DNA of 64,000 nucleotides from a virus (UHGV-0021788), one strand, 5' to 3'. Counted from the stretch's first letter, positions 10,729 through 63,163 are shown. The notes: a model not told the origin generated them from the sequence alone. Program-made: numbers and translations.

Positions 10729-10731
10729 GAT

Positions 10732-11157: not shown

Positions 11158-11191
11158 TCAATCTATTAATAAGAAAGAGTGGTGGTAATTA

Positions 11192-16595: not shown

Positions 16596-16629
16596 CTTAT
16601 GGATAATAACAATAGAAATTACGCTGGTT
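16596..16629 (+). CDS. Possible 34-nt TMP mini-exon between two introns, encoding (I)LWIITIEITLV. This is uncertain.
   Basis: It is the only frame that bridges exon 1 (phase 2+1) to the next exon at 17010. The alternative is a composite intron spanning 16324-17009. Confidence 0.3.
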
Positions 16630-17396: not shown

Positions 17397-17750
17397 ATGT
17401 AAGATTAGTAAATTTATATAAATTTTTATAAAATACAAAAATCTTAAAATTGCCGTCTTTGATAGAAATATTAAAGATAATTAGAGGGATGTATCGGTGA
17501 AGCCTAAGTCGAAAGATATGGTAATACCGAGGGTATCTTAACAGAGAATATCCGTAACGCATAGGGAGTGAGCGATATTGTTAGCAATAACCTCCCCACG
17601 AGCTTCCTCCACGATTATATATAGGATAATCACTTATAGATGTTGCTACTATAAGTTCTAACGTTAAACGAGAGTGAAAATATATGCTGGACTTATGAGA
17701 AATCATAAGAAGTGGATGTGTGAATCGACACACTATTAATAGATAAAAAG
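17397..17750 (+). mobile_element. Intron-like element, class 2 (ORF-less), inside the TMP gene.
   Basis: A paralog of 16324-16595. It is noncoding. The downstream frame opens at 17748, so exon 3 joins exon 4 at a codon boundary. Confidence 0.55.
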
Positions 17751-24611: not shown

Positions 24612-24825
24612 GGGTAATGTTGCCCTAGTCGTAAAGTAATTTGCGACTGAAAATAGATTTAATTGCAGGTAATCCCTAAAGCTCTACACCACAATATATC
24701 TGAAAAGAATATATGAAGGTACGAAAGTAGAAAAAACGTAGAGATTCTCATATGGTTAAATCCTAAGTGAGAGTAACAATGGGTGTTCATGCAAGGAAGA
24801 TTCTAAATTAAATTATTTTAAATAT

Positions 24826-24854
24826 TTTACTTTTAATAAAATAAGCAGTATAAT
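24826..24854 (+). promoter_or_regulatory. Intron-internal promoter for the HEG: TTTACT-17-TATAAT.
   Basis: -35-like tttact, a 17-nt spacer, then tataat, followed by an AAGGAAGGGG RBS and the ATG at 24878. Confidence 0.45.
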
Positions 24855-24877
24855 ATAAATAAGGAAGGGGTGAAATT

Positions 24878-26002: not shown

Positions 26003-26177
26003 TTTAACATGAATAACCTTCAACGACTAGAATGCGAATTCGTAGGGTGTAAGTGATTGACACTCGAAAAGGTCTACCCTTAATATTAAGGTGAAGAAAT
26101 AGTCTAGTCTCATATGAAAGTATGAGCAGTTCATAAGAGAACGGTATATGTTTAGCGAACATATATGAATATAAGCG

Positions 26178-28365: not shown

Positions 28366-30051
28366 ATGAAAATAAGAGGTGCTAAAGATTCATACAATCT
28401 AATATTAAGTAAAATGAATGGAAAAAAATTAGGTATCATACCTTGTTCTATTATAGAAAGTATGCAAAAGGGTGTTAAAACTGTTAGTGAATTTACATTT
28501 TCAGTTAATAAATATTATGGTGAAAATAATGAAATAAATCCTCTGTACGATGAACTTAAAACAGAAAGATTTATATTTTTAGATGAAGATGAATGTTATG
28601 TAATAAAAAATATAAGTGAAGAAAATGAGAAGAAAAAAACTATAACAGCTTATTCGAGAGAAAAAAAATTATTTAAAAATATAGCAGAATTTGAGGATAT
28701 TACACTAACATTAAAAACTCCATATGCTGATATAGAAGGTTGTTTTAGTTTAGATGAATTATTATATGATGCAACTGGTTGGCATGTTGGATATGTAAGT
28801 CCTAAAGTTTTATATAAATCAAAAGAAACAATATTGGATAATGTTACAGGGGAAATAATAGTAGAATTGACAAAGGAAGAAAAATTAAGATACCAAGAAA
28901 GTGTATCGTCAAATTGGTATGATTTTATTAATGATGATATATCAGAACAATTTGAATGTTTTCCTGTATTTAACAGCTATGATAAAACAGTTGATTTATA
29001 TGATGATGAAGAATTAGGTAATGACCCTAATTTAATGTTGTCTTATGACAATTATCTTAAGAGTATGGAAAAAGAAGATGATACAGAAGATATTACAACT
29101 GTATTAATATTATCAGGAAATGATGATTTAACTATAAGTGAAGTTAATCCTAGTGGTGATACTTATGTGGAAAATTTTTCATATTTTATGGAAAATGAAG
29201 AAATGAGTACTGAATTAATAAATGCATTAAATAAATATTATCAAATGGTAAATGTAAGAGCAGTAACATGGAATCAATTGAGAACAGAAAAAGAAGAAAA
29301 AACTGCTACATTAACACAGAAGAAAAATAGATTATTAATAGTTTATGCACAAATGAAATCTATTGAATTTACTATGAAACAAACTACTGATGAAAAGTTT
29401 AATGCTCAACAACAAGAAAGATTAGTAAAACTAAATGATGAAAAAGTATTATTAGAAAAAGAAGTAACGGAATTAGATGAAAACATTAGAAATATAGATG
29501 CTTCAATAGAAAATATAAATAAATTATGTAAGAAAAAATATGCAACTGATGAAAATGGTGTATTGATATTTACCGAGAGTTTATTGAATGAATTAAAAGA
29601 TTTTATATATCAGGATACTTATAGTAATGATTCTATTACAGATGGATTAACCTTAATGAGAATAGGTAAAAAACAATTAAAAGAAAGTTGTTATCCTACT
29701 AAAACTTGGACTATTGATTCTGTTAATTTTATTGAAAAATTAATTGATAATGGTTTTAGACAACATTGGAATGGAGAATTAGGCTTAGGAGATATGATAG
29801 TATTAAAAGGTGAAGAAACGATTGAAGTTGTATATTTAATAAATTATACACAAAATTTTAAAGATAAAACAATCGAATTACAATTATCTAATAAAAAAGA
29901 TGAAAATACATTTTCACTATCAATAGGTGAGAGATTAACACAAGGTAAAGAGGCTTATGAAATAGCTAAAAAAAGTAGAAGTACTATTAATAGAGTAAAT
30001 AAGAATAGAGTAGGACTTAATTATGACAAGATTAATAAAAAAATTTTATAG
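28366..30051 (+). CDS. Tail-associated (Tal-like) baseplate hub protein.
   Basis: 561 aa, lying in the Tal position after Dit. A coiled-coil segment sits in its middle. Confidence 0.45.
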   Translation: MKIRGAKDSYNLILSKMNGKKLGIIPCSIIESMQKGVKTVSEFTFSVNKYYGENNEINPLYDELKTERFIFLDEDECYVIKNISEENEKKKTITAYSREKKLFKNIAEFEDITLTLKTPYADIEGCFSLDELLYDATGWHVGYVSPKVLYKSKETILDNVTGEIIVELTKEEKLRYQESVSSNWYDFINDDISEQFECFPVFNSYDKTVDLYDDEELGNDPNLMLSYDNYLKSMEKEDDTEDITTVLILSGNDDLTISEVNPSGDTYVENFSYFMENEEMSTELINALNKYYQMVNVRAVTWNQLRTEKEEKTATLTQKKNRLLIVYAQMKSIEFTMKQTTDEKFNAQQQERLVKLNDEKVLLEKEVTELDENIRNIDASIENINKLCKKKYATDENGVLIFTESLLNELKDFIYQDTYSNDSITDGLTLMRIGKKQLKESCYPTKTWTIDSVNFIEKLIDNGFRQHWNGELGLGDMIVLKGEETIEVVYLINYTQNFKDKTIELQLSNKKDENTFSLSIGERLTQGKEAYEIAKKSRSTINRVNKNRVGLNYDKINKKIL

Positions 30052-46306: not shown

Positions 46307-47581
46307 ATGGCTTTAATAAAAAAATATATAAATCTTACAGTAGATGGTGATAAGGCTCATGTAGACCAACCAATATTTCTATTTCAAAATGATAAAAATA
46401 TTGATTTAATATTTACTATAAAAAATTTAAAATTTGATTTTGTTAGAAATATTCAAAAAGAAGAAGATTTAGTTGAATCAATTGGAGCTACTTATTTTAG
46501 AGTTAAAGTATTAAAACCTGATAAAGATGATGTAGATAAAGAATATACAACTGATTTATTTAAAATAAAAGATAATAAAATTATATTTAATATAGATGAT
46601 ACTTTTATATTTGATAAAAAAGATGAAGATGGGAATTTACCATCTTCAGAAAATGATAAAATAGGTATATATAAATTACAGATACAATTATATGATAACG
46701 CAAATGGTAGAATTACAATACCTGAAATTGAATTTGTTGTATTAGACCCTATATTTTTTGACCCAGAAACAGATGGAATTATAGGTGGTGACATCGGAGA
46801 CTCAACCATAGGTAAACCAAGTGAAATAACAGGATTGGTTGATTGGGTAAAAGGTCAAATAATAAGTGCAGAAAGAATGAATGCAATTCATCGTTATCTT
46901 GAAAAACTTCAAAATCAAATAGATAACATTGATTTAAGCGATAAAGATATATATGCGAAAAATGTACATTATGAAAATGAACAGTTTACAAACGTACAAG
47001 ATGCCTTAGATAGCTTATTATATAAAGCTCCTCAAGTTAATTCATTATCTTCAAATATAGGTACTACTGTTGAAATGGGTACTATGCTTTCTAGTGTAAC
47101 TTTTACATGGTCTTATAATAAATCAATAGTTTCGCAATCATTTGCAGGGGTAACATTGGATTCAAATATAAGAACTTACACTTATACAAAAGGAATATAT
47201 AATAATGTTACTTTAACATTAACTGCAAATGATGGAAAAAATAATTGTAGTAGAAATATAAGTTTTACTTATGCAAATCGTATTTTTTATGGGGTATCTG
47301 ATACAACTACTTATAATGTTAACTTATTAAAATCATTATCAAATACATTAAGTAATAATAGAAATAGAAGTTTTACTGTTAATCCAATAAACAATCAACA
47401 TATTATATATGCAATACCTAGTAGATTAGGTGAATGTAAATTTTCAGTTAATGGTTTTGAAGGTGGTTTTCAAAAAGTATCCACTATAAAATATACAAAT
47501 TCACAAAATTACACAGAAGATTATTATATTTATAGGTCAGATAACCCGAATTTAGGAAAAACAACAGTTGTTGTAAATTAG
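46307..47581 (+). CDS. BppU-like baseplate or receptor-binding protein.
   Basis: It shares an N-domain with 45828-46304 and has a C-terminal beta-rich domain. Its start overlaps the upstream stop. Confidence 0.4.
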   Translation: MALIKKYINLTVDGDKAHVDQPIFLFQNDKNIDLIFTIKNLKFDFVRNIQKEEDLVESIGATYFRVKVLKPDKDDVDKEYTTDLFKIKDNKIIFNIDDTFIFDKKDEDGNLPSSENDKIGIYKLQIQLYDNANGRITIPEIEFVVLDPIFFDPETDGIIGGDIGDSTIGKPSEITGLVDWVKGQIISAERMNAIHRYLEKLQNQIDNIDLSDKDIYAKNVHYENEQFTNVQDALDSLLYKAPQVNSLSSNIGTTVEMGTMLSSVTFTWSYNKSIVSQSFAGVTLDSNIRTYTYTKGIYNNVTLTLTANDGKNNCSRNISFTYANRIFYGVSDTTTYNVNLLKSLSNTLSNNRNRSFTVNPINNQHIIYAIPSRLGECKFSVNGFEGGFQKVSTIKYTNSQNYTEDYYIYRSDNPNLGKTTVVVN

Positions 47582-47597
47582 GAGGTGATAGTTAACA

Positions 47598-47678
47598 ATG
47601 GCTATTGAATTAATTTCAACTATAATTCCTAAAAATAGTGGGAATTTTGCTATTGTTCTCACCTGTCAAATGATATAA
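47598..47678 (+). other. Short ORF with a strong RBS. It is probably the true N-terminus of the next gene, displaced by a -1 frame change (programmed frameshift, pseudogene or sequencing error).
   Basis: TAGGAGGTGATAG RBS followed by ATG. The ORF (MAIELISTIIPKNSGNFAIVLTCQMI) overlaps the upstream open part of the 47750 frame, which is open from 47639. Confidence 0.35.
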
Positions 47679-47749
47679 AAGGTGGATTACATTCAGTAAA
47701 AACAATAGCTGAAAGAGATAATATACCTCTTGAAAGATTAGAAGAAGGT

Positions 47750-48697
47750 ATGTTATGTTATGTAAAAGATACGGAAAAGTATTATAATTGGAAAAATAGT
47801 ATTTGGTCAGAATTTAGTGGAGGCGGTTCTGGCAATTTACTAATTTATAGAGTTGATAATTTTAACGATATGAATTCTATTAATACAAAAAATCTTGAAT
47901 ATGGAAGTTTATGTCATGTATTAAATGATGAAAACTTAAGATATATGTATTATTATGGTAAAGAGGGTTGGCAATCAATCAGCCATAAATATAAAGTGTG
48001 GATAGGTAAAGAACCACCAAATGATAAAAACTCTCTTTGGGTTGACACAAGAATGATGGAATTAGATTTATCAACAGGTCAAGAATCAAGTATACCTCAA
48101 TCTGTTAAATATTTAATAAATGTAATTAGTAATCTATCTAATGAAATTATCAATCTAACAGCAAAAGTAAACATATTAAATAATGAAATAGAAACTATTA
48201 AAAAGCAAATTGGTAGTGGTGGAATTATTACTGATAATAATATATATCTTACTACTGAAGACGATAAGATTATTACAACAGAAGATGGAATTCCTATTTT
48301 ATATGAAGAAAGTAAAGGTAACAGTGGAGGTTCAGGCGGTGGTACTGGTGGTGAAGATAAACCTCCTATTGATAACAACACCTATATTGTTACTGAAGAT
48401 GATAAAATCATTACTACTGAAGATGGAATTCCTATTTTATATGAAGAAAGTAAAGGTGGTAGTGGAGGAGGAACTACTCCTAGTGTTGATAATAATACTT
48501 ATATTACAACTGAAGATGGTAAAGTTATTACAACAGAAGATGGAAAACTTATATTACATGAACAAAGTAAAGGCAACAGTGGTGGTACTACAGGAGATAC
48601 AGATAAAACAGATAAAAATACTTATATAATTAGTGAAAATGGTAAAATAATAATTACCGAGAATGGTAAAGCTATTATACCAGAAAATAAAAAATAA
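47750..48697 (+). CDS. Tail fibre-like protein with four or five tandem roughly 40-aa repeats (NTYI.TEDDKIITTEDGIPILYEESKG.SGG).
   Basis: Repeats lie at about 48230-48690. The frame is open upstream of the annotated ATG, back to 47639. Confidence 0.45.
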   Translation: MLCYVKDTEKYYNWKNSIWSEFSGGGSGNLLIYRVDNFNDMNSINTKNLEYGSLCHVLNDENLRYMYYYGKEGWQSISHKYKVWIGKEPPNDKNSLWVDTRMMELDLSTGQESSIPQSVKYLINVISNLSNEIINLTAKVNILNNEIETIKKQIGSGGIITDNNIYLTTEDDKIITTEDGIPILYEESKGNSGGSGGGTGGEDKPPIDNNTYIVTEDDKIITTEDGIPILYEESKGGSGGGTTPSVDNNTYITTEDGKVITTEDGKLILHEQSKGNSGGTTGDTDKTDKNTYIISENGKIIITENGKAIIPENKK

Positions 48698-48702
48698 AGG
48701 AG

Positions 48703-49975
48703 TTGGATATATTGGAAACTATTAAGAAAAGTGCATTTCAAGAAATTGGTATTCTTAATGATAATGATTATTTTGATATAGTTACTAATACAAATGTTAA
48801 TAGAAGAATTAAATTTTCAGCAATGAAAGAAGCTATAAATAATAGTGTTAATTCTTATGTCGATGTTAAAGCAAAAAATGGAAAAATTTTCAGATTAACT
48901 GTTAATAATGAAGGGGAAATAATTTGTCAAAATGCTGAAGCATATACTGCTACTGCTCCAGAAAAAACTGAAAGTGGTAGATTTGCTGGTTTAATGATAA
49001 ACATGATATATGGTGGTGGAAATAATAAAAATAATACTGCTTGTTCACATCACTTTATAGAATTATATAATCAAAGTACTAGTAGTATGGATTTAAATTT
49101 AAAAGGACTTTATTTATCTGTTAAAAGTAATACAGGTGATTGGCAATCTCTTGCATTAGAGGGTATAATACCTTATCAACATTCATTCCTTGTAAGATGT
49201 AATCAAGTTTCTAATCCTGTACTATTAGGTACTAGATGTAAAATAGATACATATGACCAAGAATGGAATATAGATTTAACTGATGTAGGATTTAGTGCTT
49301 ATTTATCAATAGGAACACCTACAACTGTTAATCCAGCTAATGCAGATGGTAATATGAATAAAGAAGTTGGATATATAGACTTAATGGGTGCTGGTGGAAC
49401 ACAAGAAACACAAGGAGTTAAAGCTTTTGAAACTGCCTATCCAATGTTGATGACTAAAGATATAGGTTGTAGAAGACTTGACTTTGCTGATACAGATAAT
49501 AATCAAAAAAACTGTAGAGCAATAAATTGGAAAACTTGTGATGTAAGTGTCTATAAACCTAGAAGTGTATCAGATGGTAAATGGGACTTATACTTTAACA
49601 AAGCAAAACTAAAATCTACAATGCCTAATCTAATAAATATGTGTTATGGACAAGATGGTTCTAAAACTAGAACATTTACTTTCCAAACTGTATTAACTGA
49701 TGAAGGTTATATTAAATGGAGAAAATACGGAGAATTAAAATGGAATAAAAAACCTACTACTAAAGAAATAATAACTCACTATGATTGTGATGCTACTTTA
49801 CATAGAGTTTTTATTACTGATTTACAACCTGGAATTTATGAATATCAATGTGGTTCTGAAGGTGCATGGAGTGATATAAGTACTTTTGAAGTAAGAAATT
49901 ATGCACAAACTGCTGATAAAAGTAATTTTGTACATAACGATATAAAAATGTTATGGACTACAGACCAACAAGCAT
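48703..49975 (+). CDS. Purple-acid-phosphatase-like metallophosphoesterase tail protein, exon 1 (N-terminal domain plus the PAP N-domain).
   Basis: HRVFITDLQPGIYEYQCGSEGAWSDISTFEV matches the Pur_ac_phosph_N pattern. The real start is possibly the TTG at 48712. The frame is interrupted by the intron at 49976. Confidence 0.5.
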
Positions 49976-50194
49976 GGACTAACATATAGTCCCTATATTA
50001 AGTGATTAGTATAGTAAATCCTTTGAATTGCTGGTAAATCCTAAAGCCTTATAAACTACAACATGATTAGAAATAATGAGTGTGAATGTTACGAAAGTAG
50101 AAAAAATTATAAGGATAACATATGGTTAAATCCTAAGTGTTATATACAATGGAAGCTCAGCAGGTAAGATTCTAAATTAAATTATTTTAAATAC

Positions 50195-50223
50195 TTGACT
50201 TTTAATAAGATAAATTGTATAAT
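50195..50223 (+). promoter_or_regulatory. Intron-internal promoter for the HEG: TTGACT-17-TATAAT.
   Basis: Consensus -35 and -10 elements with a 17-nt spacer, followed by a GTGAGGTGA RBS. Confidence 0.55.
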
Positions 50224-50245
50224 ATAAGTAAAGTGAGGTGATAAA

Positions 50246-51160
50246 ATGGGAAGAAAGAAAACACATGAGGAATTTATGAAAGAGTTTTATGAAAAAAATC
50301 CTAATGCTAAAAATATAGAAATATTAGGAAAATATGAAGGTAGAAAAGTAAAAATTTTATGTATGTGTAAAATAGATAACTATAAATGGCATACAACTCC
50401 TAATGGATTATTGGGAAGTAAAAATATTAAACCAAATGGATGTCCGAAATGTGCTGGAAAAATAAAAAAAACACATAAACAATTTATAGAAGAAATGAAT
50501 GAAATAAATCCAAATATTAAAATATTGGGGCGTTACATAGATGCTAAAACTAAGATAGAATGTGAATGTAAAATAGATGGATATAAATGGGAAGTTGAAC
50601 CAACTAATTTGCTACAGAAAAGAGGATGTCCAAAATGTGCTAATAAAATACCTAGAGAACATGATGATTTTGTTAAAGAATTAAATAACATCAATCCTAA
50701 TATAAAAATAATAGGTAAATTTATATCTACTAGAACTAAAATAGAATGTGAATGTAAAATAGATGGATATAAATGGGAAGCTGAGCCAAGACATCTTTTA
50801 GGAAATCATGGATGTCCAAAATGTAATGATTCTATTGGAGAAAAAATAACTTATAATATATTAAATAAATTAAATATAAAAAATATAAGACAATACAAAT
50901 TTAAAGATTGTAAATTTTATAAATGTCTTCCTTTTGATTTTTATTTGCCACAATATAATTGTTGTATTGAAATTGATGGTAAGCAACATGAGAATATAGT
51001 CAAATGGTTTGGTGGGTTAGATGGTTTTATAGATAGAAAAATTAGAGATACGGTTAAAGATATATATTGTAAGAATAATGGAATAAAATTAATTAGAATT
51101 ACATATAAAGATATAAATGAAATAGAAAAAATAATTTGTCAAGAACTTAATTTAAATTAA
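50246..51160 (+). CDS. Intron-encoded homing endonuclease with three Zn-ribbon modules and a Vsr-like/DUF559 domain.
   Basis: CPKC repeated three times. The C-terminal part reads LPFDFYLPQYNCCIEIDGKQH..IKLIRITYKDI. Confidence 0.75.
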   Translation: MGRKKTHEEFMKEFYEKNPNAKNIEILGKYEGRKVKILCMCKIDNYKWHTTPNGLLGSKNIKPNGCPKCAGKIKKTHKQFIEEMNEINPNIKILGRYIDAKTKIECECKIDGYKWEVEPTNLLQKRGCPKCANKIPREHDDFVKELNNINPNIKIIGKFISTRTKIECECKIDGYKWEAEPRHLLGNHGCPKCNDSIGEKITYNILNKLNIKNIRQYKFKDCKFYKCLPFDFYLPQYNCCIEIDGKQHENIVKWFGGLDGFIDRKIRDTVKDIYCKNNGIKLIRITYKDINEIEKIICQELNLN

Positions 51161-51319
51161 TTTAATATGAATAAACTTCAACGACTAAGTATCCTAGTAG
51201 TCTAGGTAGTGGAGGATACCCTTATTGGGTAATGATATAGTCTGCTCTCATGGGAAACCATGAGCAGTTTTTATGTAAAAAAACGGATAGAATAGTAACG
51301 ATATTCTATTGAACATAAG

Positions 51320-52155
51320 GTGTTGAGGAATCACAAGCTACTAATGTTTGTTTCCAAAATATAAGTGAATGGGAAAAAGGTACTGATTTTGATTTTCATT
51401 TAAATACAGGCGACATTTCGCAAAATGCAAACAGAAGTTTTGAGTGGAGATACCACTATAAATATGCAGATGACCTAATAAGAACTATGTGTCATCAAAT
51501 AACTTGTGGGAATAATGACTTAATAGATAAGAAATATTCAGATGCATTTACATGGTACATGACACCAGAAGATTATTTCTTACCAGACCAAATAGATAGT
51601 GGTTCAGGTGTTATGGTTAATAATCCTAATAAATGTACTTTTAATTCATGTCATAGTTTTGACTTAGGATATGTACATTTTGTTTGTTTAAATAGTAATA
51701 AAGATTATTCTATGTTTAATGAAAATGAAGGTGAAAAAATAGATGATTGGATACAAAGAGAATGTGCATGGTTAGATGCAGATTTAACTAGAGATGAATC
51801 TAATGCTAAAACAAGATGGGTAATATGTTATATGCATTACGCACCTTTTACAGTATCTAGACCTGACTGGATACAAAGATTTGTTCCTGTATTTGAAAAA
51901 CATAGAGTACATTTAGTATTATGTGGTCACAACCATACAAACTCAAGAAGTATTGTAGTTAGAAGTGGTTATGATGGAGACCCAAATAAAGCAAGCTATG
52001 ACCCTAAAGGTCAAAAAACAGCTGAAGAAGAAACAGCTTTAGGACATGGTACTATAAATCATAATGAAGATTTAAAAAATGGTACTCTTTACCTAATGAT
52101 TAATGCAACTGGATTCAAGAATACAGGTAAAGAAAGTATACAAAATCCTTATCCT
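51320..52155 (+). CDS. Metallophosphoesterase catalytic domain, exon 2.
   Basis: GDISQNA, the GNHE-like LCGHNHTN (GHxH) and YMHYAPF are calcineurin-like phosphoesterase motifs. The frame opens at 51319. Confidence 0.55.
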
Positions 52156-52332
52156 TGGTAAAAAAATATTGCCACTTTACATAGTAATATGTAATGACAA
52201 ACTCATTGAATTGCTGGGACGACCTTAGAGCCTTAATGCCACAATATAAGAGAAATCATTATATGAAGGTTTAAAAAGTTTAAGGATTGGTTAATCAGCA
52301 GGTAAGATTCTAAATTAAATTATTTTAAATAC

Positions 52333-52361
52333 TTGACTTTTAATAAGATAAATTGTATAAT
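52333..52361 (+). promoter_or_regulatory. Intron-internal promoter for the HEG: TTGACT-17-TATAAT.
   Basis: Identical to the cassette at 50195-50223. Confidence 0.55.
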
Positions 52362-52384
52362 ATAAGTAGAGTGAGGTGATAAAT

Positions 52385-53299
52385 ATGGGTAAAAAGAAAA
52401 CACATGAGGAATTTATGAAAGAGTTTTATGAAAAAAATCCTAATGCTAAAAATATAGAAATATTAGGAAAATATGAAGGAAACAATAAACCTATTAAATG
52501 TCGTTGCAGAATAGATGAATACGAATGGTATCCAAGACCTTGTCATTTATTGGGAAATAAAAATGCTAAACCTACTGGTTGTCCTAAGTGTAGTGGAAAA
52601 GCAAAAAGAACAAATGAAGAGTTTATTAAGGAAATATATATAATAAACCCTAATATAGAAATACTTAGTGAATATAGTGGAGTTAGTAATTTAATAGATT
52701 GTCGTTGTAAAATAGATGATTATGAGTGGTCATCAATTGCTGATAATTTATTACATGGACATGGTTGTCCTAAATGTGGAGGACAAATAAAAAAGGAACA
52801 TGAAGAGTTTGTAAAAGAAATGGAAGAAATAAATCCCAATATAGAAATACTTGGGGAATACAATGGAGTTCATGAATATATTTTATGTGGATGTAAAATA
52901 TGTAATCATGAATGGACAACTCGTCCTCATGAATTATTAAATGAATACGGATGTCCTTCTTGTAATATATCTCGAGGAGAATTTAAAATAAAAACTTTAT
53001 TAGAAAAATATCAAAAACAATATAAATATCAATATAAATTTAAAGATTGTAAATTTTATAATGAATTACCTTTTGATTTTTATTTACCTGATTATAATAT
53101 TGCAATAGAATATGATGGAGAACAGCATTATAAAATAATTAAACAATTTGGTGGAATAAATAGATTAATAGATAGTAAAATAAGGGATACTGTTAAAACT
53201 GAATATTGTAAAAATAATAACATAAAACTTATAAGAATACCTTATTGGAATTATAAAGATATAGAAAATATACTTATAAAAGAACTTAATTTAAAATAA
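52385..53299 (+). CDS. Intron-encoded homing endonuclease with a Zn ribbon and a Vsr-like/DUF559 domain.
   Basis: CPKCSG, CPKCGG and CPSC motifs. LPFDFYLPDYNIAIEYDGEQH..IKLIRIPYWNY. The ATG at 52385 follows a GTGAGGTGA RBS. Confidence 0.75.
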   Translation: MGKKKTHEEFMKEFYEKNPNAKNIEILGKYEGNNKPIKCRCRIDEYEWYPRPCHLLGNKNAKPTGCPKCSGKAKRTNEEFIKEIYIINPNIEILSEYSGVSNLIDCRCKIDDYEWSSIADNLLHGHGCPKCGGQIKKEHEEFVKEMEEINPNIEILGEYNGVHEYILCGCKICNHEWTTRPHELLNEYGCPSCNISRGEFKIKTLLEKYQKQYKYQYKFKDCKFYNELPFDFYLPDYNIAIEYDGEQHYKIIKQFGGINRLIDSKIRDTVKTEYCKNNNIKLIRIPYWNYKDIENILIKELNLK

Positions 53300-53475
53300 T
53301 TTAACATGAATAAACTTCAACGACTATCCTGTAATGGAGTAGGGTTCAAGCGAACTCGAAGTAGTGAGCATCTTAATAAAGATGAAGATATAGTCTAGTC
53401 TCATGGGAAACCATGAGCAGTTTTTGTGCGTAAAAACAAAACGGGTTAGGTGTAGCGAACCTAATTGAATATAAC

Positions 53476-53690
53476 GGGTATGGATTAAGAACTTCACATC
53501 CAACACAACCAACTTATGCAACATTAACTATAGGTTGGGATAAGATAGAATATAAATGCTATAAGATAATGAACACATTAAGTAAAGATAGAAACGGAAA
53601 TACAATAGTAGTGCCTTATGGTAGTCAAACTAAAGAATTGTATGATAGTTGTACTCTTAATTGGAGAGCAAAAGGTCAAACACTAATATA
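53476..53690 (+). CDS. Metallophosphoesterase, exon 3 (C-terminal, about 71 aa).
   Basis: The frame is open from 53434 to the TAG at 53688-53690. It joins exon 2 at a codon boundary (..NPYP/GYGLRTSHPTQ..). Confidence 0.4.
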
Positions 53691-53704
53691 GGTGGTGATA
53701 GTTT

Positions 53705-56377
53705 ATGCCTAATAGAATTTGGAGTGAAGAAAAAAAAGATTGGATAATAGTCGATGAAACAAATTTAGCTACAAATATAGAAGTAATGGATATCAAAGAG
53801 TACTATCATAAAAAGAAAACAGAAGAAGAAACAAAAGATGATGAATTTTTAAGTGTTGAAAAATGCTTAGAACAAATAGGGGATAAAATAAATAATGGTG
53901 ATATAGGTGCTATAGGTGAAATAAAAGATAAAGTACAAGATTTGGATGACAGAGTAACCTATATTGAAGAAAACGGTGGTGGTGGAGGAGGTGGCTCTTC
54001 CATGCCTACCGTTAAACTTCTTAGTGATAGTTATTATGCTATACCAACCGATGGAGAATTAAATATTTATTATAACTTTACTTCTCCAAATATAGGATTT
54101 GGTACAGCATTTATAAGTTTAGACTATGGAACAGCTGAACAGTTATCAGTTGCACAAGGTCGTAATTTTTATACTGTAAAAAACTTAGAAAAAGGTGAAC
54201 ATAGACTAGATATATATGTAACTGATATAACAGGTTTATTCTCGAATACAGTTACAGTAACAATAGTTGTTGGTGGACTTGAATTAACTTCTAATTTTGA
54301 CGATAGTACGGATTTATCCTTAGAGGATTATATTAGAATAAGATATGTTATCTCAACAATATCTTCTAAGCCAATTGAAGTGTCTATTGAAATAGATGGT
54401 AAACTAACAAAAGCAGAAGGTATAATTGGTCAAAATATATTGGAAGTTGGACAGTTTAGTTCATTAGGGGTTCATACAGTTAAAATATCAGCCGTCAGTG
54501 GTGATTTAGTATCAAACCAATTAGTATTTAATTTAGTTGTAGCCGATTCAGAAAATCTTTATGTATCTACTACTTTTCCTGATAATTATACTATACAAGT
54601 AGGTAAAAACCTACAAATTGATTATAGAAATAGTATGGTAAATCAAAATAGATTTATTACTCATATGCTTATAAATGGTACTGAAGTAGATACGGTAACA
54701 TCTTATTCAGGATATAACTATTGGAACGTTGGGTCTAATTTAGAGATAGGTTTATATACTTTAACATTATATTCTACTACATCCGATGGTGCATATACAT
54801 CAAATTATTTAACATGGGTAATAGATGTTGTTTCAGAAGACTATGTTCCCTTTAAGGTTGTAACAGATGGGTTATTATGTAATTTTGATGCTAATGGTAA
54901 TCAACAAACATCTTCTAGTAGAAACATATGGAAAGACGATAGTGGAAACGACGTTAAATGTGAATTGTTTAATTTCAACTATTCTACAAATGGTTGGATA
55001 GATAACAGTTTAGTATTTAATGGTAAAACATATGCTAAAATAGATTTTTCTCCTTTTAGTGATAATATCAAAAATGGTATGACAATTGATATGTTATTTA
55101 AAGTAAAAAATGTTGGTGATATAGACGGAAAAGTATTATGGTGTAAAAATCCAATTACACCTTACCAAGGTTTTTATATAAATACTTATGAGGCAAATTG
55201 TCGTTCTGCCAACTCAAGAATAGTTAGTAACCAATTTCAAGATGACACATGGACTAGAATAACATGGGTTATTAATAGAGAAGATTTGACAATGATAGCT
55301 TATGTAAATGGTATCATAACGAAACCTGTATATATAACAGATACAGAAAACTTTAGAATGGAAAAAGATATTTATCTAGGTGTATCATTTGACGAAGTAG
55401 ATAACAATTTAGATAATGATGGTAATCCAATACCTCACTATGCATCTTGTTCTATAAAAACATTTAGAATATATGATAGAGCATTAACTGATGAAGAAAT
55501 ATTACAAAATCATATTGCCGATATAAAAGATAAAGAAAAACAATTGGAAATAAGAGAAAAGAACTATGGTGATAGTACAATGCCTATCATAAAATTTGAA
55601 GGTAATGTAGAAGGTATGGATGGTAGTATCTATAAATTATTAACAATAGATTATAATGACCCATTAGACCCATCTAAACGTTTTAGACAAGAACAATGTA
55701 GAGTAAAATGGCAAGGTACTTCTTCACTAGAATATCCAGTAAAAAACTATACAATAGAACTTAGAAGTGGTGGTAACGTTTGGGAATATGCTCCTAAAGA
55801 CAATTGGCTACCAGAAAAAAGATATACTTTGAAGGCTTCGTTTATGGATAGTTCTACATATAATAACGTTGGTTCTTCTAAATTAATTTATGATTACTTT
55901 AGAAAATCTAATATGTTTTATCCACAAGAAATTAAAAATCCTAAAACTAGAGCAGTAATAGATGGTTTCCCAGTTAGACTTTATATTAATGGGGAATCAA
56001 AAGGTATATATATGTTCAATATAGATAGATATGCTGAAAACAATTATGGATTTTCTGGGGAATCATCAATTGTATCTTATGAAATAGCTGTCAACTCTGA
56101 AAGTGGTGCTGGTGCTTTCGCATCAGATGCTTGGTCAAGTATACGTTCTGAATTTGAAATGAGATATCATTATGCTGGAGATGAAAGTGTTGTATGTGAA
56201 ACTGTTATGGAAAATGGTGTACCAACTACTGTTTTAAAAGCAGGTTTTCATTCAGAATTACAAAATTTAGTTTCATGGGTATTAAATTCTACTATAGAAG
56301 AGTTTAGAAGTGAATTAAAAGAACATTTTGAATTAAACTTTTTAATAGATTATTATCTATGGGTTCTATGTTTGGGT
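53705..56377 (+). CDS. Giant host-interaction protein, exon 1: a Gly-rich linker, Ig-like region, LamG (ConA-like) domain and the N-terminal part of a CotH-like domain.
   Basis: LamG-like NSLVFNGKTYAKIDFSP...TWTRITWVINRED..AYVNG. CotH-like KRYTLKASFMDSSTYNNVGSSKLIYDYF...VRLYINGESKGIYMFNIDRY. The RBS resembles that at 47598. Confidence 0.55.
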
Positions 56378-56469
56378 TAATACAATGGCTCAAGTAAAAC
56401 TTTCTCTGATTAATGGCGAACACCCTAGTAGAAAAGGGCAACGCTCAAGAAGATTTATTTAACAATATT

Positions 56470-56498
56470 TTGACTTTTAATAAAATAAGTAGTATAAT
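56470..56498 (+). promoter_or_regulatory. Intron-internal promoter for the GIY-YIG HEG: TTGACT-17-TATAAT.
   Basis: The same cassette (ttgacttttaataaaataagtagtataatataa) as the Vsr-like HEGs. Confidence 0.5.
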
Positions 56499-56519
56499 AT
56501 AAATGAAAGGGGTGATACT

Positions 56520-57230
56520 ATGAGTGAAAATAAATATTATGTTTATGAATGGATTAGATTAGACACAAATGAACCATTTTATGTAGGTAAAGGTTGTGGA
56601 GATAGATGGAGGAATTTATATAGGGATTACAATCCTCGTTTTATGAATATAATAAATAAAGTACCAGTAGCAGTATCAATATTAATAAATAATTTAACAG
56701 AAAAGGAATCTTTTGATTTTGAATGTTATTATATATGGTTATATAAAGATATTATAGGATATGATATATGCAATATAAATGAAGGTGGGGAAGGTCAAAG
56801 TTTATGTGGTGAAGCTAATGGTTTTTATGGTAAACATCATTCAGAAGAAACTAAAAAATTATTAAGTGAACAACATAAAGGCATGACTTATTCTCAAGAG
56901 ACAAAAAATAAATTGAGTGCTATGAGAAAAGGTGAAGGGAACGCTATGTGGGGACGTAGAGGAGAATTATCTCCGCATTGGGGTAAAAAATATTCAGAAG
57001 AAAGAAAAAATAATATTAGTAAAGCAATGGGTACTTCTGTAAAGTGTATTGAATTAAATATAGAATTTAATAGTCTTAATAAAGCAGAAAAATATATGAT
57101 TAAAGAATATGATATTAAATTTTCTCATAAAACTTTAAAAGCTACGATAGAAAAAAGAAGAAAAAAAGATTGGTATGGAGAAATAGAAATTAATGGAGAA
57201 TTAATTAAACTTCATTGGGAATATTGTTAA
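56520..57230 (+). CDS. GIY-YIG homing endonuclease with NUMOD3 repeats (I-TevI-like).
   Basis: YVYEWIRLDTNEPFYVGKGCGDRW (the GIY-YIG motif). Repeated GKHHSEETKKKLS / SQETKNKLS / SEERKNNIS (NUMOD3). Confidence 0.75.
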   Translation: MSENKYYVYEWIRLDTNEPFYVGKGCGDRWRNLYRDYNPRFMNIINKVPVAVSILINNLTEKESFDFECYYIWLYKDIIGYDICNINEGGEGQSLCGEANGFYGKHHSEETKKLLSEQHKGMTYSQETKNKLSAMRKGEGNAMWGRRGELSPHWGKKYSEERKNNISKAMGTSVKCIELNIEFNSLNKAEKYMIKEYDIKFSHKTLKATIEKRRKKDWYGEIEINGELIKLHWEYC

Positions 57231-57446
57231 ATAAAATCACTTGCAACGACTGAGTGAGAAAGGCTTAAAGATTAATTCTTTAAGTAAGCAACAGTCTGAA
57301 CTTGCGAATATAATTTCTACAAAAAACAAATCGCAGAAGAGGGGTCATCGGTAATCAGACCGATTAAAGAAGAACCCCTCTCGCCAACTTAGGTTGGTCA
57401 GTAGCCGAAAGGTGAAAGTAACAGAATGCTAGTAGACAACTTGGGT

Positions 57447-57691
57447 TTAATGATTTTGGCTCAAGTATAAAATTCTCTCTGATTAATGGCGAACACCCTA
57501 GTAGAAAAGGGCAACGCTCAGGAAGATTTATAAAATCACCTGCAACGACTGAGTGAGAGAACACTTATTTAAGTGAAGCAACAGTCTGAACTGCAAATAT
57601 AATTTCTACAATAACAAATTGCAGAAGGAAGTTGAAGTGCTTCCTCGCCAACTCAAGTTGGTCAGTAACCGAAAGGTGAAAGTAACAGAAT
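57447..57691 (+). mobile_element. Intron-like element, class 3, ORF-less. It is a tandem near-copy of the preceding element without the endonuclease.
   Basis: The 5' and 3' blocks are near-identical to 56388-56460 and 57345-57424. A putative mini-exon of about 19-22 nt lies at 57428-57446. Confidence 0.45.
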
Positions 57692-57745
57692 TGAAAAATA
57701 TGGTTTTAACAACTTTCGGTATGAATGCTGAAGGTAACGTAATTT
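57692..57745 (+). CDS. Putative short CotH exon (LKNMVLTTFGMNAEGNVI).
   Basis: This frame is open only here. The peptide continues a CotH-like core when joined to WYDADSELG of the next exon. Confidence 0.35.
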
Positions 57746-58001
57746 GGTATCCATCCTTTGACATAGGAGGATGTAAAACTCTCTTTAATTGACTTGGAAG
57801 TCCTGAAGAGGACGACAGGGGGCAAGTTTAAATACAGCCTGAACGACTAAACAAGAGAGCATTATCATATTGATAATGATGTGATAGTCTGAACTCTAGT
57901 AATAACTTGTTTTAATGAAACTAGAGAAGGAAATCCGAAGTGTTTTCCTCGCCATAAAATATTATGGTCAGTAGCTTAGGAATAAGTGAAAGTAACAGAA
58001 T
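57746..58001 (+). mobile_element. Intron-like element, class 3, a divergent third copy, ORF-less.
   Basis: It has the same 3' terminus (cctcgcca....gtcagta.c...gtgaaagtaacagaa) and an analogous 5' block (gtaaaactctctttaattgacttgg). A tggtat repeat occurs at both junctions. Confidence 0.45.
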
Positions 58002-61000
58002 GGTATGATGCAGACTCAGAGTTGGGTTTAACCAACGATGGTGAGTTAAGATACGGTTCAGGTATCGACACTTTAACAGATAATTTCAATACTTCTGATT
58101 CTAAATTATGGACTAAATTACTAGAAGCTTTCCCAGATGAAGTACAAGCAAGATATATCTATATGAGAAGTAATGGATTTATGACTTATGAAAATATTAT
58201 AAAATATTATGAAAATATAGCAGATACAATTGGTCAAACATTCTATAATGAAGATGCAAGACTTAAATATATTAATGAAGATAATAAATCATTTATTTAT
58301 ATGTGTAATGGTTCAAGACTTGAACATACAAAAAGATGGTTAAGCGAACGTATTGTATATATGGATAGTAAATTTAACTATGGTGATTTCTTATTATCTT
58401 CTACTATACGTTCAAATGTTTCCGGTGAGGTATCATTAAAAGTAAAAACATATTCACCTCAATGGGTAGAAATATCTTTCTCAGATAGTGCTACAGGTAC
58501 AACAAGACAATGGTGTAGTAAAGATAAATGGTATACATTTATAAATACCATTGAAAATGCCGTCGACAACAATATCACCATTAGAGGTGTAACTAATATA
58601 ATGTATTTACAAGGATTAGAAAATTTAAATGTATCTTCTTTACTTGTATCAAATGCAAAAGGTTTATGTGAAATTGATATTCATGGTTCTAAACGTATTC
58701 AAAGATTGGAACTAGGTAACAATATCATGTTACAAAAACTTAATTGTAAAGATTGTATTAATTTAGGTATTGATGATAACTATAAAGTTGTTAACTTGGA
58801 AAAATGTATCAACTTAAAATATCTTGATTTATCTAATACTATGATAGGTACACTTCAATTAAATAAAGATGGTGGTGCATTAGAATATTTAGATTTATCT
58901 GAAACAGAATTAACTTATTTAACTTGTAACCATCAAGAATATTTACCTGAAATAAAATTAGATGGTTGTAAAAATCTATCATCTGTTACTATTAATGGTT
59001 GTAATGCATTAACAAGATTGAGTTTACCTAATACTAAATTAGCTGAATTTACTGTAACAGATTGTAATAGTTTAAATTACCTTGATATATCATATACTGG
59101 TTATTTAGTAAAATTAGATTTAACAGGTTGTAGTAGTTTAACTACTTTAATAATGTCAGGTATAGCAAATAATAAATTTACTGAATTAGATGCGAGAACA
59201 TTAACAAAATTAACAACATTAGATGTGTCTAAATGTTATTTCTTAAATAATATAAGATTTGCTAATGGATATAATGCTTTAACATCTGTAAACTTCCAAC
59301 AAAGTGGGATTAAGACTTTACAGTTTGGAAATAATGAAAAACCTCCTTATTTAGATTTATCTCCATTTAATTTAACAGAAGTTAATTTCTATAACTGTAC
59401 TGAAATAGAATATATTAAAAATATAAAATTATATGCTACAAAATCCATAGAACCTTTTTATAATTGTGTTAATTTACACACTATAGAAGGTACTATAAGT
59501 TTAACTGATGATTTAGGAAGAAGTTTTTATAATTGTAAAAAACTAGTTAATTTACCTACTTTAGATTTAAGTAGAGTTAAAACAGCTTCGGATTCCTTTA
59601 TGCATTGTGAGTCTTTAACTTATGACCAATTACTAGAAATTTTAGGTAAGATGAATAATTGTCAAAGTTTTTATAGAACTTTCCAAAACTGTTTAGCTAT
59701 GGAACATGACGGTTGGGAAAAAGCTTTATTCGATAAGATACCAAAAGCAACTTATTTTTATTGGACATTCTCAGATACTCCAATAAGCGGACAATTAGAG
59801 CAAGGAATCTTTGATAGTTTATTAGATTTACAAACTGTAGATGGATTATTTAGCGGTGGTAAGGCAAAAGGTTATATTCCAGCCAATCTATTCAAATATA
59901 ATACAAAATTACAAAATCTTTGGAATCTATTTAATGGATGTAAAGAATTAGAAACTGCTACTAATATAGTAAACATGTTTACCACTACAGTAGATTTAAG
60001 AGGTATAGAGGGATTATTTAGTGGTTGTACTAATGCTTTTATGAAACTAAGTGATACATGGTTTGCAAATTGTCCAGAGCTACAAAATATGGATTATGCT
60101 TTTGCAAATTGTACAAACTTAATTGGTTCTATAGCTGAAAATCCTCATATGATAAAAAATAAATCTAAATTAACAACAGCAGAACATACCTTCCTTAATT
60201 GTACAGGCATAAGTGGTGATTTACCTGATGATTATTTTGTTGGGTGTACTGCTTTACAAGAAATACAAGGACATTTTCAAGGATGTACTGGTCTAACAGG
60301 AACTCCTAAAACTGAATCATGGATAGATTGTGAAAATATAACTAATGCTTCATATTTATATGCAGGATGTACTGGTTTAGGTGGTATAGCAGGTGCTACT
60401 CAAGAAATACCTAAAGATTTCTATAAAAGAAAATATAGACTTATAGATATATCTGGTATGTGGCAAGGTTGTAATCAACTACAATTTTCTCTAATGCCAT
60501 TAAAAGAAGATAAGTTAGGTGAGGATGGAGCTGTTATAGAAAAAGGGGACGACCCTTGGTTTGTTGATTGTAGACAGTTAGCGAAAATAAATTATCTATT
60601 TGATGGTTGTAGTAATTTATCATCTGTAATACCTTCTAGGTTATTTGAAGTTTGGGATGAAAAAGGCGAAGTAATGGATACACTTATAACAGAAGCTAAA
60701 GCGGTATTTAAAAATTGTCAATTACTTACAGATGAAATACCAGAAAATCTATTTGAAAAATTTATTAAAGTTAGAGATTTAACTGAATTTTTCTATCAAT
60801 GTAGAAGTTTAACTGGTGGTATTCCTGATACATTATTTTCTAATTGTTATTCTTTAGTTTATGCTAATAGAATGTTTATGCGTTGTGGTAAATTAGGAAA
60901 ATATGCAGACCAAGTAACAGAAGAAGAGCCATATTTCTGTAATGAAGAACTATTTTGGAACTGTCCTAACCTATTGGAAATATCTCAATTATTCCATATG

Positions 61001-61396
61001 TATGATGGATGGGGAACTTCTCTAAGAGGAGACATACCTCCATTGTTATTTAGAGCTAATCCTAAATTACAAAATATAAATAATGCCTTTGCTGGTTGTA
61101 GTCTTTTAACTGGTGGGTTGGATGGGCAACTATTTGTTAGAAATGCTAAATTAAAAACTGCTAGAGAAACTTTCCACGGTTGCTCAGGTTTAAATGGAGA
61201 AATGAGTGGAGCGTTATTTACCTCTACTAATAATCCACTTTTAACAGATTTCTATCAAACCTTTCAAAATTGTAAAAATATACAAGGTACTGCACCTTCA
61301 TTATGGACACAATTCTCTAATGCAAATGGTGGAGGATGTTTTAATGGATGTACTAAATTAAGTAATTATGCAGATATACCTTCACAATGGAAATAA
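58002..61396 (+). CDS. Giant host-interaction protein, last exon: the CotH C-terminal part plus an extensive BspA-type leucine-rich repeat region.
   Basis: The frame is open from 57986. LRR_5-like repeats (F.gCt.L.g.i......f..C..L) run through about 59300-61300. A strong terminator follows. Confidence 0.55.
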
Positions 61397-61470: not shown

Positions 61471-61857
61471 ATGAGAGTAAATTTAACAATAGATAATAAA
61501 GATAAAATTATTGAATTTCATTATAAGAAGGTGAAAGGAAATATTACAATTAAATTCATTGACGATGATACTGGTGAAGTTATAAAAACAAAAATATTAT
61601 CTGATTTAGAACTTGGTACACATAATATAAAACCTACAGAAATAGAAGGATACAAATTCGTAGGGGAAGAGATTGTTGAAGAAATAGAAGAAGATGAAGA
61701 AGATTATGATGAAGAATACGATGAAGATGAAATAGATGATGAAGAATATGACGAAGAGATAGAAGAAGATGATGATGAAATAGAAGAATTAGAAGACGAC
61801 GAATTAGATTCTATTAAAAAATTTGTAGATGGATTAAGTGGAAAGGATGGGAAATAA
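61471..61857 (+). CDS. Small protein with a poly-D/E C-terminal tail.
   Basis: AAGGAG RBS. The acidic tract EEIEEDEEDYDEEYDEDEIDDEEYDEEIEEDDDE. Confidence 0.45.
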   Translation: MRVNLTIDNKDKIIEFHYKKVKGNITIKFIDDDTGEVIKTKILSDLELGTHNIKPTEIEGYKFVGEEIVEEIEEDEEDYDEEYDEDEIDDEEYDEEIEEDDDEIEELEDDELDSIKKFVDGLSGKDGK

Positions 61858-62241
61858 ATGGATAATAAAGAATTATTAGAACAATTAAAAAAGTGCCTTA
61901 GTATATGTGATAGTTTAAAAGCTGAGAAAGAAGAATTAATACAACAATTAGAAGAAGAAAAACAAACAAATGAACAATTATCTAAAACTTTAGTTGAAGC
62001 AAATAATGCAGTTGTTGAAACAATAGATGTCTTAGGTAAAACGAATAATTCTATTATGGAATTTAAAGAAGGCGTTTTAAATTATCAAGCTTATGTAACA
62101 GTTTCATTAGATAATATGTATAAAAAGGTTAATAGTATCATAGAAAATGAAGAAGTAAGAAAAGAAGATTTAAGTAAATTTAAAGACGAAGTAGAAAATG
62201 TAATAAAAGAATTAGAAGAATTAAATAAAGAATTAAGCTGA
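61858..62241 (+). CDS. Coiled-coil protein (127 aa).
   Basis: The start overlaps the upstream stop (ATAAATG). Confidence 0.4.
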   Translation: MDNKELLEQLKKCLSICDSLKAEKEELIQQLEEEKQTNEQLSKTLVEANNAVVETIDVLGKTNNSIMEFKEGVLNYQAYVTVSLDNMYKKVNSIIENEEVRKEDLSKFKDEVENVIKELEELNKELS

Positions 62242-62251
62242 GGTGAATTCA

Positions 62252-63163
62252 ATGGATAAAAAAGAAAAAGAAGATGATAAAAAAGTAGATGTGCTTAGCA
62301 GTTCTTTATCAACAACAGTTAAGAAAAATTATGCAATGGAACAAAGTAAAATTAAATTATTTTGGAATAAAGGAATTACTGGAGAAGGAATAAAGGTTGG
62401 AATAGTTGATACAGGTTTACAATTAGACCATCCTATGTATAATGGAAAAATATTATGTGGTAAAAATTTCTCTAATGATGGTAATTCTGAAGATAATTTA
62501 TCTAGTAATCATTATCATGGAACTGCCGTAACATCTTTAGTATGTGGCGATTATATGAATTATCAAGCTTATGGTATAGCACCTGATTGTAAAATTGTAA
62601 TAGGTAAAGCTATGAATGACAAAGGTGTAGGTAATGCTACTAATATAGCTAATGCAATAACATATTGTGTACAACAAGGAGTAGATATAATAAATTGTTC
62701 TTTAGGATGCGTAGATGATACACAAGTATTGAGAAATGCCGTAAATTTAGCAGTTTCAAATGGCATATCAATAGTTTGTGCTAGTGGTAACGATGGACAT
62801 AATGATACAGATGGGAGTATTAGAGAAGTAAGATACCCAGGTGCTTATGGTGAGAGTATTTGTGTAGGTGCAATAGATATAAATTTTAAGGTAACTGATT
62901 TTAGTAATTCAAATGAATTTGTTGATGTTGTAGCACCAGGGCAAGATATATTATGTGCTTATCCTGGTGATAAGTATGCTATAATAAGTGGAACTTCATT
63001 TGCTACACCTATAATAAGTGGAATATTAGCATTACTTAAACAAAAGTTTAGAATAGACTTTAAAAGAGACCCAGTTGAATCAGAATTATATGGTATGTTA
63101 TTAAAATATACCAGAGAGATTAAAGGAGTTCCAAGAAGTATGCAAGGGAATGGTTATCCCTGA
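62252..63163 (+). CDS. Subtilisin-like serine protease (peptidase S8).
   Basis: Catalytic triad motifs VGIVDTGL (Asp), HGTAVTS (His) and GTSFATP (Ser). The ATG at 62252 follows a GAGGTGA RBS. Confidence 0.7.
   Translation: MDKKEKEDDKKVDVLSSSLSTTVKKNYAMEQSKIKLFWNKGITGEGIKVGIVDTGLQLDHPMYNGKILCGKNFSNDGNSEDNLSSNHYHGTAVTSLVCGDYMNYQAYGIAPDCKIVIGKAMNDKGVGNATNIANAITYCVQQGVDIINCSLGCVDDTQVLRNAVNLAVSNGISIVCASGNDGHNDTDGSIREVRYPGAYGESICVGAIDINFKVTDFSNSNEFVDVVAPGQDILCAYPGDKYAIISGTSFATPIISGILALLKQKFRIDFKRDPVESELYGMLLKYTREIKGVPRSMQGNGYP

Follow-up and report, generated by a model that had tools for sequence, protein, structure and literature searches.

What does the viral DNA UHGV-0021788 encode between positions 53705 and 61396, where the reading frames break up in the middle of a CotH kinase-like domain: one interrupted gene for a giant protein, or several genes side by side? 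All coordinates refer to the + strand of the whole stretch of DNA that was analyzed, which is 64,000 nucleotides (nt) long and is called the window here. The window is AT-rich, with a G+C content of ~28%, and its large open reading frames (ORFs) are all on the + strand. An ORF list for 53705-61396 gives an 891-codon ORF (53705-56380), a 236-codon ORF (56520-57230), an ORF at 57986-61396, and an additional short ORF containing NMVLTTFGMNAEGNVIWYPSF. We conclude that the locus is very probably one gene with four exons and three group I introns, a judgment that applies jointly to the exon-intron structure and to the classification of the inserts as group I. Sequence comparison places this gene in the phage G gp353 / phrog_9915 family. 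The four exons, whose joined translation is the protein discussed below, are the following:

53705-56377, + strand: exon 1, 891 codons, ending in ...LWVLCLG with U as its last base; its product contains, from the N terminus, a segment with a poly-Gly linker, immunoglobulin (Ig)-like repeats, a LamG-like region at amino acids (aa) 456-599, and, starting at aa 668, the N-lobe of the CotH domain.
57429-57446, + strand: exon 2, an 18-nt micro-exon encoding LVDNLG and holding the invariant Asp894, the predicted catalytic Asp.
57694-57759, + strand: exon 3, 66 nt, KNMVLTTFGMNAEGNVIWYPSF, ending in ...GNVIWYPSF and holding the invariant Lys898 and Asn899.
58004-61396, + strand: exon 4, 1,130 codons plus stop, starting with YDADSELG and holding the invariant Asp921 and Asp923; it encodes the CotH C-lobe and a beta-sandwich, then a ~900-aa leucine-rich repeat (LRR) solenoid (roughly 58664 to 61393).

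Joining these exons yields a protein of 2,049 aa with zero internal stops. A protein search with the join found 12 uninterrupted homologues of 1,988-2,043 aa, with 37-56% identity over 97-100% of the query, and metagenomic homologues reach ~55% identity across 100% of the length. The homologue alignment is gapless over all junctions (...G-LVDNLG-KNM...IWYPxFYDxDS...), and the exon boundaries are fixed because this alignment spans them. Against the phrog_9915 profile, the exon-1 product covers positions 16-852 (E 6e-204) and the exon-4 product covers positions 874-1531 (E 3e-108). A tblastn search with phage G gp353 placed residues 40-871 on exon 1, residues 878-899 on 57694-57759, and residue 900 onward on exon 4. 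The six residues that tblastn left unmatched, 872-877, are those of the 18-nt exon, and the phage G sequence LIDYYLIAYVFGMVDNLGKNMVLSTWGKNSQGNTVWYPSFYDVDS aligns with the joined window sequence without gaps. The homologues, phrog_9915, and gp353 therefore bear out the view of the initial annotation that the ORFs at 53705-56380 and 57986-61396 are parts of a single gene. Its third junction, GNVI / WYDADSELG, was placed four codons too early; the W it contains is the last TGG of intron 3. A join at GNVIW/YDAD was dropped, as it is missing four residues that are present in every homologue. A Shine-Dalgarno sequence, GGTGGTGA, lies 7 nt ahead of the exon-1 ATG. A megablast search of the 7.7-kb region against phage records gave zero matches.

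Next, we considered what separates the exons. The three inserts and the reading frame carried by the first of them are the following:

56378-57428, + strand: intron 1, group I, 1,051 nt; its guide GCUCAAG (56388-56394) pairs with exon uuugggu, and it ends in ...AACAGAAUG.
56520-57230, + strand: putative homing endonuclease of 236 aa, in the P6 loop of intron 1, with its own ribosome-binding site.
57447-57693, + strand: intron 2, group I, 247 nt, no ORF; its guide GCUCAAG (57459-57465) pairs with exon cuugggu.
57760-58003, + strand: intron 3, group I, 244 nt, no ORF; its guide AGGAGGAUG (57765-57773) pairs with exon cauccuuu, and it ends in ...AACAGAAUGG.

The presence of three intervening sequences with a common 3' end, GTGAAAGTAACAGAAT(G), is confirmed; "class 3", the label first given to them, is no recognized intron type, and they belong instead to a group I family that is widespread in phages. 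The shared 3' 16-mer is followed by G, TG, or GG. In all three introns, the preceding exon base is a U that pairs with a G inside a P1 helix with the internal guide sequence, and the last intron base is a G (omega G) at the junctions fixed by the protein alignment. Intron 3 is of a different sub-lineage of the same family as introns 1 and 2. Retrieval from IMG/VR with the shared 16-mer gave 95 loci, at least 67 of which carry further core motifs; one family example lies in the tape-measure / lytic transglycosylase gene of SPbeta-like Bacillus prophages. A profile of the family searched with nhmmer against the window found only these three copies, and a distant blastn search with introns 2 and 3 against phage records gave two weak matches only.

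The secondary structure of the family was examined by covariation. RNAalifold, given an 18-sequence alignment, found P3, P5, P8, and two 3' hairpins unaided, with many compensatory changes. We then tested a named structure made of the P3/P7 pseudoknot, P4, P5, P6, P8, P9.0, P9, and the 3' hairpins, 52 pairs altogether. In this structure, 92.7% of cells pair and 36 of the 52 pairs have compensatory changes. The observed pairing, compensatory-change counts, and covariation score were attained by none of 500 shuffles, a further pair-type count was attained by 12 of 500, and slid-partner controls paired at ~40%. P7 is invariant apart from pair 100/140, which covaries as AU, GC, and UA. Minimum-energy folds of introns 2 and 3 reproduced P1, P3-P6, P8, and P9. 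An earlier candidate for P3, UCGCC/GGCGA, was dropped because it is absent from intron 3 and a covarying P3 lies elsewhere. A group II intron or an intein was ruled out: the inserts lack GUGYG...AY and a reverse transcriptase, and none of them is in frame.

Two results speak against the group I assignment. The z-scores for the folds of introns 2 and 3, at -1.8 and -2.5, are modest, and the window introns are unmatched by the Rfam model Intron_gpI (RF00028), either at the gathering score over the whole window or at E<=10 over 56200-58200. However, another member of the same family (L081) scores 69.6 bits against Intron_gpI while the window copies go unmatched; the Rfam group I model therefore misses this intron sub-lineage. 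The whole-window silence is also weak evidence because the same run missed a 68.9-bit group I match elsewhere. Each of the three introns is predicted to fold as a standard ribozyme, with P1, the P3/P7 pseudoknot, P4-P6, P8, and P9 plus the 3' hairpins, and would self-splice from the mRNA. Splicing at all three sites is what we infer from these features.

We then asked what the joined protein contains at the point of interruption. Exon 1 alone matches the Pfam CotH model over positions 2-182 of 322 with 31 bits. The initial annotation had named the absence of a CotH hit on the joined sequence beforehand as grounds for rejecting its reading; the corrected join matches CotH (PF08757) with 57.5 bits (E 2e-15, cut-off 23.8) over positions 2-299 of 322 in one stretch. 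For the fold, we used an AlphaFold model of the CotH region of a homologue (P0004), which is 66% identical to the window there, and not a model of the window's own sequence. This model has a predicted local distance difference test score (pLDDT) of 84 and a predicted template modeling score (pTM) of 0.86. Within the PDB, it strongly matches only 5JD9 and 5JDA, the CotH kinase of B. cereus (E 1.7e-12, probability 1.00, target-normalized TM-score 0.71), with other atypical kinases far behind. The Bacillus spore-coat kinase shares with the window domain the predicted kinase fold and, judged by spacing, a D-x4-N catalytic loop and a downstream Asp; it differs in that identity is only 13% and the window domain is embedded in a 2,049-aa protein. 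Residues D894, K898, N899, D921, and D923 are invariant in the family alignment, down to 27% identity. In B. subtilis CotH, the D228Q and D251A variants are catalytically dead (PMC7821199). Two points weaken the comparison with CotH. The equivalence of D894/D921 to D228/D251 comes from motif spacing and two model strands between them, not from a residue-level alignment, and neither phmmer nor the family profile reached CotH among PDB sequences, which the fold comparison did. Overall, the model and the sequence conservation support a kinase fold with conserved predicted catalytic motifs, and the domain is probably enzymatically active.

The three introns lie within 84 nt of coding sequence, with exons of 18 and 66 nt between them. 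Exon 2 encodes the D of VDNLG, exon 3 opens with KN, and exon 4 opens with YDAD. As these exons hold the invariant residues, the introns flank the predicted catalytic loop together with the predicted metal-binding Asp. The CotH core is indeed split across the intron cluster, as first proposed, and the introns sit exactly in its active-site coding stretch. One site is also occupied elsewhere. Another phage contig (L100) carries an intron of the family exactly at the intron-2 site (VDNFG|KNMM), where the exon reads CUUUGGU and the guide reads GCUAAAG. This compensatory change in P1 points to selection for splicing.

Could the locus be two independent genes, one for a LamG/half-CotH protein and one for an LRR protein, with a free-standing endonuclease gene and repeated non-coding elements between them and no splicing? 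ORF callers do list separate ORFs, public data call the same split as two proteins (P0019, 1,164 aa, and a 1,137-aa neighbor), and Rfam is silent on the inserts. However, each side would then hold half a kinase fold, which would not function, and the 18-nt and 66-nt pieces encode exactly the residues absent from both halves. Uninterrupted homologues are known, and the inserts have a covarying group I core with the correct splice-site bases, so that two separate genes seem barely credible. It is also very improbable that the locus is a decaying pseudogene in which some or all of the introns no longer splice and no full-length protein is made. Such decay could be imagined from the 18-nt exon, which might mis-splice between introns with identical guides, and from introns 2 and 3, which are without an endonuclease gene. 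Against it, the four exons keep an open frame and every family-invariant residue, all core helices are intact in the three introns, and the contig intron described above sits at the same site with its compensatory P1 change. A single spliced gene is the reading that we carry forward.

The sites of the introns and the endonuclease suggest how the cluster may have arisen and spread. Introns 1 and 2 are 77% identical without the ORF and are mutually closest among the introns compared. They have the guide GCUCAAG in common, and each stands behind a UUGGGU, the two hexamers being 18 nt apart. Sister copies with one guide at closely spaced UUGGGU sites fit an origin of one of the two by guide-directed insertion of the reverse-splicing type. 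In several other contigs (L006, L021, L055, L087, and others), the same lineage occurs behind UUUGGGU, eight codons past the intron-3 site, with the guide GCUCAAA; some of these downstream-site introns carry a homologous endonuclease gene, ending ...LHWEYC. At the matching position in the window, 58022-58027, an unoccupied TTGGGT lies at the E-L-G codons, within one base of the intron position in the related phages. This hexamer may be a target still free for insertion, or it may mark a site from which an intron was lost. Relatives without introns at these sites have other synonymous codons there (TTA GGT, TTC GGT, or CTT GGT). It is improbable, though compatible with the data, that the lineage spreads between UUGGGU sites by reverse splicing and not by endonuclease homing.

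The putative endonuclease of intron 1 matches phrog_314 (E 1e-18) and has three NUMOD3 motifs; phrog_314 is a GIY-YIG, I-TevI-like family (PMC11878797 Table 2). Its assignment to that class is called into question by a score of 17.6 bits against TIGR01453, for which the cut-off is 56, and by the lack of a match to Pfam GIY-YIG (PF01541); YVYEW...FYVGKG motifs were noted by eye only. As in I-TevI-type homing, a group I intron encodes an endonuclease with NUMOD3 motifs in one of its peripheral loops, although the catalytic domain of the window endonuclease is only weakly recognized. The introns occupy the most conserved part of the gene, the D-x3-K-N and D-x-D codons, which would make good targets for mobile introns. 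In the mechanism that we propose, the I-TevI-like endonuclease of intron 1 probably cuts nearby on intron-less alleles, and repair then copies all three introns together, so that the cluster would move as one unit. Endonuclease-triggered repair would thereby co-convert the cluster, keep it together, and spread it. As in collaborative homing, the ORF-less introns lie within ~100 bp of the endonuclease intron and could be co-converted with it. Homing in trans is known in phage T4 (PMC2790892).

A further consequence of the shared guide is conceivable. Because introns 1 and 2 have the same guide and both follow UUGGGU, the ribozymes may join exon 1 to exon 3 and skip the LVDNLG exon, giving kinase-active and kinase-dead forms of one protein. 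The micro-exons are 6 and 22 whole codons, and every skipped product would therefore be in frame, a full-length adhesin with a dead kinase. We regard such alternative splicing as improbable. Precedents for intron-rich phage genes exist. Landthaler and Shub reportedly described in 1999 three introns and exon skipping in orf142 of Staphylococcus phage Twort. Polymerase and terminase genes of Bastillevirinae have multiple group I introns, and alternative splicing of one phage gene is documented (PMC11878797). The Twort and Bastillevirinae genes have two or three self-splicing group I introns each at conserved sites, some with GIY-YIG (phrog_314) or phrog_559 endonucleases. The window differs in that the interrupted gene encodes a CotH-LRR giant and not a replication or packaging protein, the exons are as short as 18 and 66 nt, and two introns have one guide. 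A further difference is that the window copies go undetected by Rfam RF00028.

Beyond the kinase-fold domain, the protein has, from N to C terminus, a short Gly-linker segment, Ig-like repeats, the LamG-like region, the CotH domain, and the LRR solenoid. The model of the C-terminal 910 aa (pLDDT 89.5) is a long solenoid whose PDB matches are all long LRR ectodomains. LRR_EndoS matches the first ~250 aa of the LRR region at 36-40 bits against a cut-off of 27.9, and all 30 F-x-x-C-x-x-L motifs (DUF285/BspA type) lie in aa 1184-2032. The family initially named for this region, LRR_5 (PF13306), scores 17-18 bits, under the Pfam cut-off of 27.7, and the length first given as about 700 aa is corrected to ~900 aa. 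Homologues give faint PF03382 or weak PF13306 matches. Laminin_G_3 (PF13385), also part of the first description, reaches 22.2-26 bits at aa 456-599 and falls below its cut-off of 27.6. Precomputed Laminin_G_3 matches exist in three homologues (P0006, P0011, and P0012), and by sequence aa 456-599 is likely a sub-threshold member of the Laminin_G_3 / ConA-like lectins.

The genomic neighborhood gives a partner for the gene. The window genes that precede it include tape-measure pieces and genes for a Dit-like minor tail protein and for tail or fiber proteins, one of which resembles tail proteins of large C. difficile siphophages. Directly upstream of the CotH giant is a metallophosphoesterase gene (Pur_ac_phosph_N + Metallophos, 800-870 aa), and this arrangement is found in the window, in a 50-kb contig (L096), in a 277-kb contig (L098), and in phage G. 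In the window, 14 nt separate the phosphoesterase stop from the start codon of the CotH giant that follows, and this start codon is preceded by a good Shine-Dalgarno sequence. The gene was first placed in a phage tail module. It does follow tail genes in the window, but in phage G and the two metagenomic relatives it is surrounded by replication and metabolism genes. The conserved neighbor is the upstream metallophosphoesterase, not the tail genes.

How might the protein act? By analogy with CotH-LamG giants that carry a C-type lectin varied by a diversity-generating retroelement (DGR), we tentatively propose attachment to the host surface, by way of the LRR and lectin parts, as its most likely role. 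Its kinase-fold domain, probably active, would work with the conserved upstream enzyme, which is purple-acid-phosphatase-like. Taken as a whole, this role is possible, and we hold it with less than even confidence. The location of the gene pair in phage G and in both contigs, among replication and metabolism genes and not beside tail genes, counts against it; in phage G, the tail genes are ~170 genes from gp352-gp353 (PMC8570332).

The same location is the basis of a different proposal, in which the protein is an intracellular enzyme of host takeover or assembly and forms, with the phosphoesterase, a portable kinase/phosphatase cassette that is not a virion component. The pair lies among DNA-metabolism and non-structural genes far from tail genes in those three genomes (PMC8570332) and is found in phages with unrelated tail modules. 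However, a ~900-aa LRR solenoid combined with Ig-like and LamG parts is what one typically sees in proteins that bind surfaces, and in the window the pair directly follows tail genes. An intracellular role thus seems possible, if doubtful. One may also ask if the CotH fold is an enzyme at all, as it could be a binding or scaffold module, a role proposed for fungal CotH invasins, within a virion adhesin or fiber. On either side of the fold, the LamG-like and LRR parts are modules for binding, the DGR-varied C-type lectin ends of related giants are typical of receptor-binding proteins (PMC5758913), and a virion protein outside the cell would be without ATP. Invariance of the predicted catalytic Asp, the Lys-Asn, and the Asp-x-Asp to 27% identity is hard to explain without catalysis, and the conserved partner is a phosphoesterase gene; a non-enzymatic module is therefore somewhat unlikely.

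The pair at 46307-61396, phosphoesterase and CotH giant, looks like a portable cassette. In the 277-kb contig, a third upstream gene is also related to window positions 46307-47581. The cassette is present in phage G, which is a myovirus, in the 277-kb contig, and in the window, where the adjacent tail module resembles the one in C. difficile phage phiCD211. Positions 28366-30051 encode a tail protein that shares 37-41% identity with C. difficile phage tail proteins.

The closest known counterpart is gp353 of phage G (Bacillus/Lysinibacillus). It is like the window protein in domain order, in length (2,055 vs 2,049 aa), in its CotH region (54% identity), and in a gapless match over the active-site stretch, and a metallophosphoesterase gene (gp352) is immediately upstream, as in the window. 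It differs in being uninterrupted, far from tail genes, and unannotated, and no study of it was found in the literature examined. The initial annotation considered such a protein unusual in a virion, and the wider family shows it to be one of many. A CotH-domain profile matched 5,949 cluster representatives with E<=1e-3, of which 2,548 reached E<=1e-30; the best 150 are mostly 1,800-2,900 aa long with the domain at about aa 600-1,100. A tblastn search with the CotH region reached phage G, Bacteroides phage p00 records (~25% identity), Bacteroides DAC phages, and "internalin-like" proteins of crAss-like phages. Phage proteins of ~2,000 aa with CotH and Laminin_G_3 domains are already published as DGR targets, category f1 (Wu et al. 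2018, PMC5758913), and CotH-family kinase domains in phages have been noted as unstudied (Benler et al. 2021, PMC8008677). The window protein shares with the DGR-target giants its size, its weak LamG and CotH signatures, and its phage context, and unlike them it ends in a ~900-aa LRR solenoid. No retroelement was noticed near the CotH giant, though no dedicated search was made.

Both the protein family and the intron type were therefore already known. Attractive details of this case are the 18-nt exon, the sister introns with one guide, and the recurrent UUGGGU sites. The analysis maps precisely the exons of a gene that is broken into unrelated pieces by automatic annotation, and a public protein cluster with 166 member sequences (P0019) has the same split error, which probably affects many family members. 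In the contig with the intron at the intron-2 site, the intron-containing CotH giant (4483-11687) is annotated as two proteins, of 1,164 aa and 1,137 aa; the former continues for a few codons into the intron and then stops. The CotH kinase center seems intact across a large uncharacterized family of phage giants, which comprises thousands of metagenomic clusters as well as phage G gp353, and its pairing with a phosphoesterase gene, constant in the genomes compared, is a testable handle on its role. The locus is also a compact natural case for co-conversion of intron clusters, exon skipping, and guide-directed insertion, and it shows that the Rfam group I model misses an intron lineage.

Several other genes lie downstream or are interrupted in the window. 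Three genes downstream of the CotH giant, a subtilase is encoded at 62243-63163 (Peptidase_S8, E 7e-47); the intervening ORFs, 61471-61857 and 61858-62241, are small and of acidic or coiled-coil type. The tape-measure gene is broken into two large pieces, 11192-16354 and 17796-24617, totaling ~4,000 aa. In the 1.4-kb gap between them, Rfam Intron_gpI matches at 16302-16553 (37 bits), 16619-16958 (68.9 bits, which exceeds the gathering score), and 17435-17709 (28 bits). The whole-window run at the gathering score reported none of these, its filters having lost a true match.

The upstream phosphoesterase gene (Lamin-tail, Pur_ac_phosph_N, Metallophos; 48703-53691) has three exons (~48703-49977, 51322-52143, and 53479-53691), separated by two inserts of 1.34 kb each that are mutually 73% identical. 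Each insert has a phrog_559 endonuclease ORF (50246-51160 and 52376-53299) and a Twort-like group I core, CAACGACUA...AUAUAGUCUGCUC, and both were undetected by Rfam. Further endonuclease-bearing copies, 66-78% identical to these inserts, lie at ~162-533, ~3050-4342, ~8577-9578, and ~24658-26174. Together with the three tape-measure introns and the three introns of the CotH gene, these copies suggest that the 64 kb contain 12 or more group I introns, which is unusually many for a phage.

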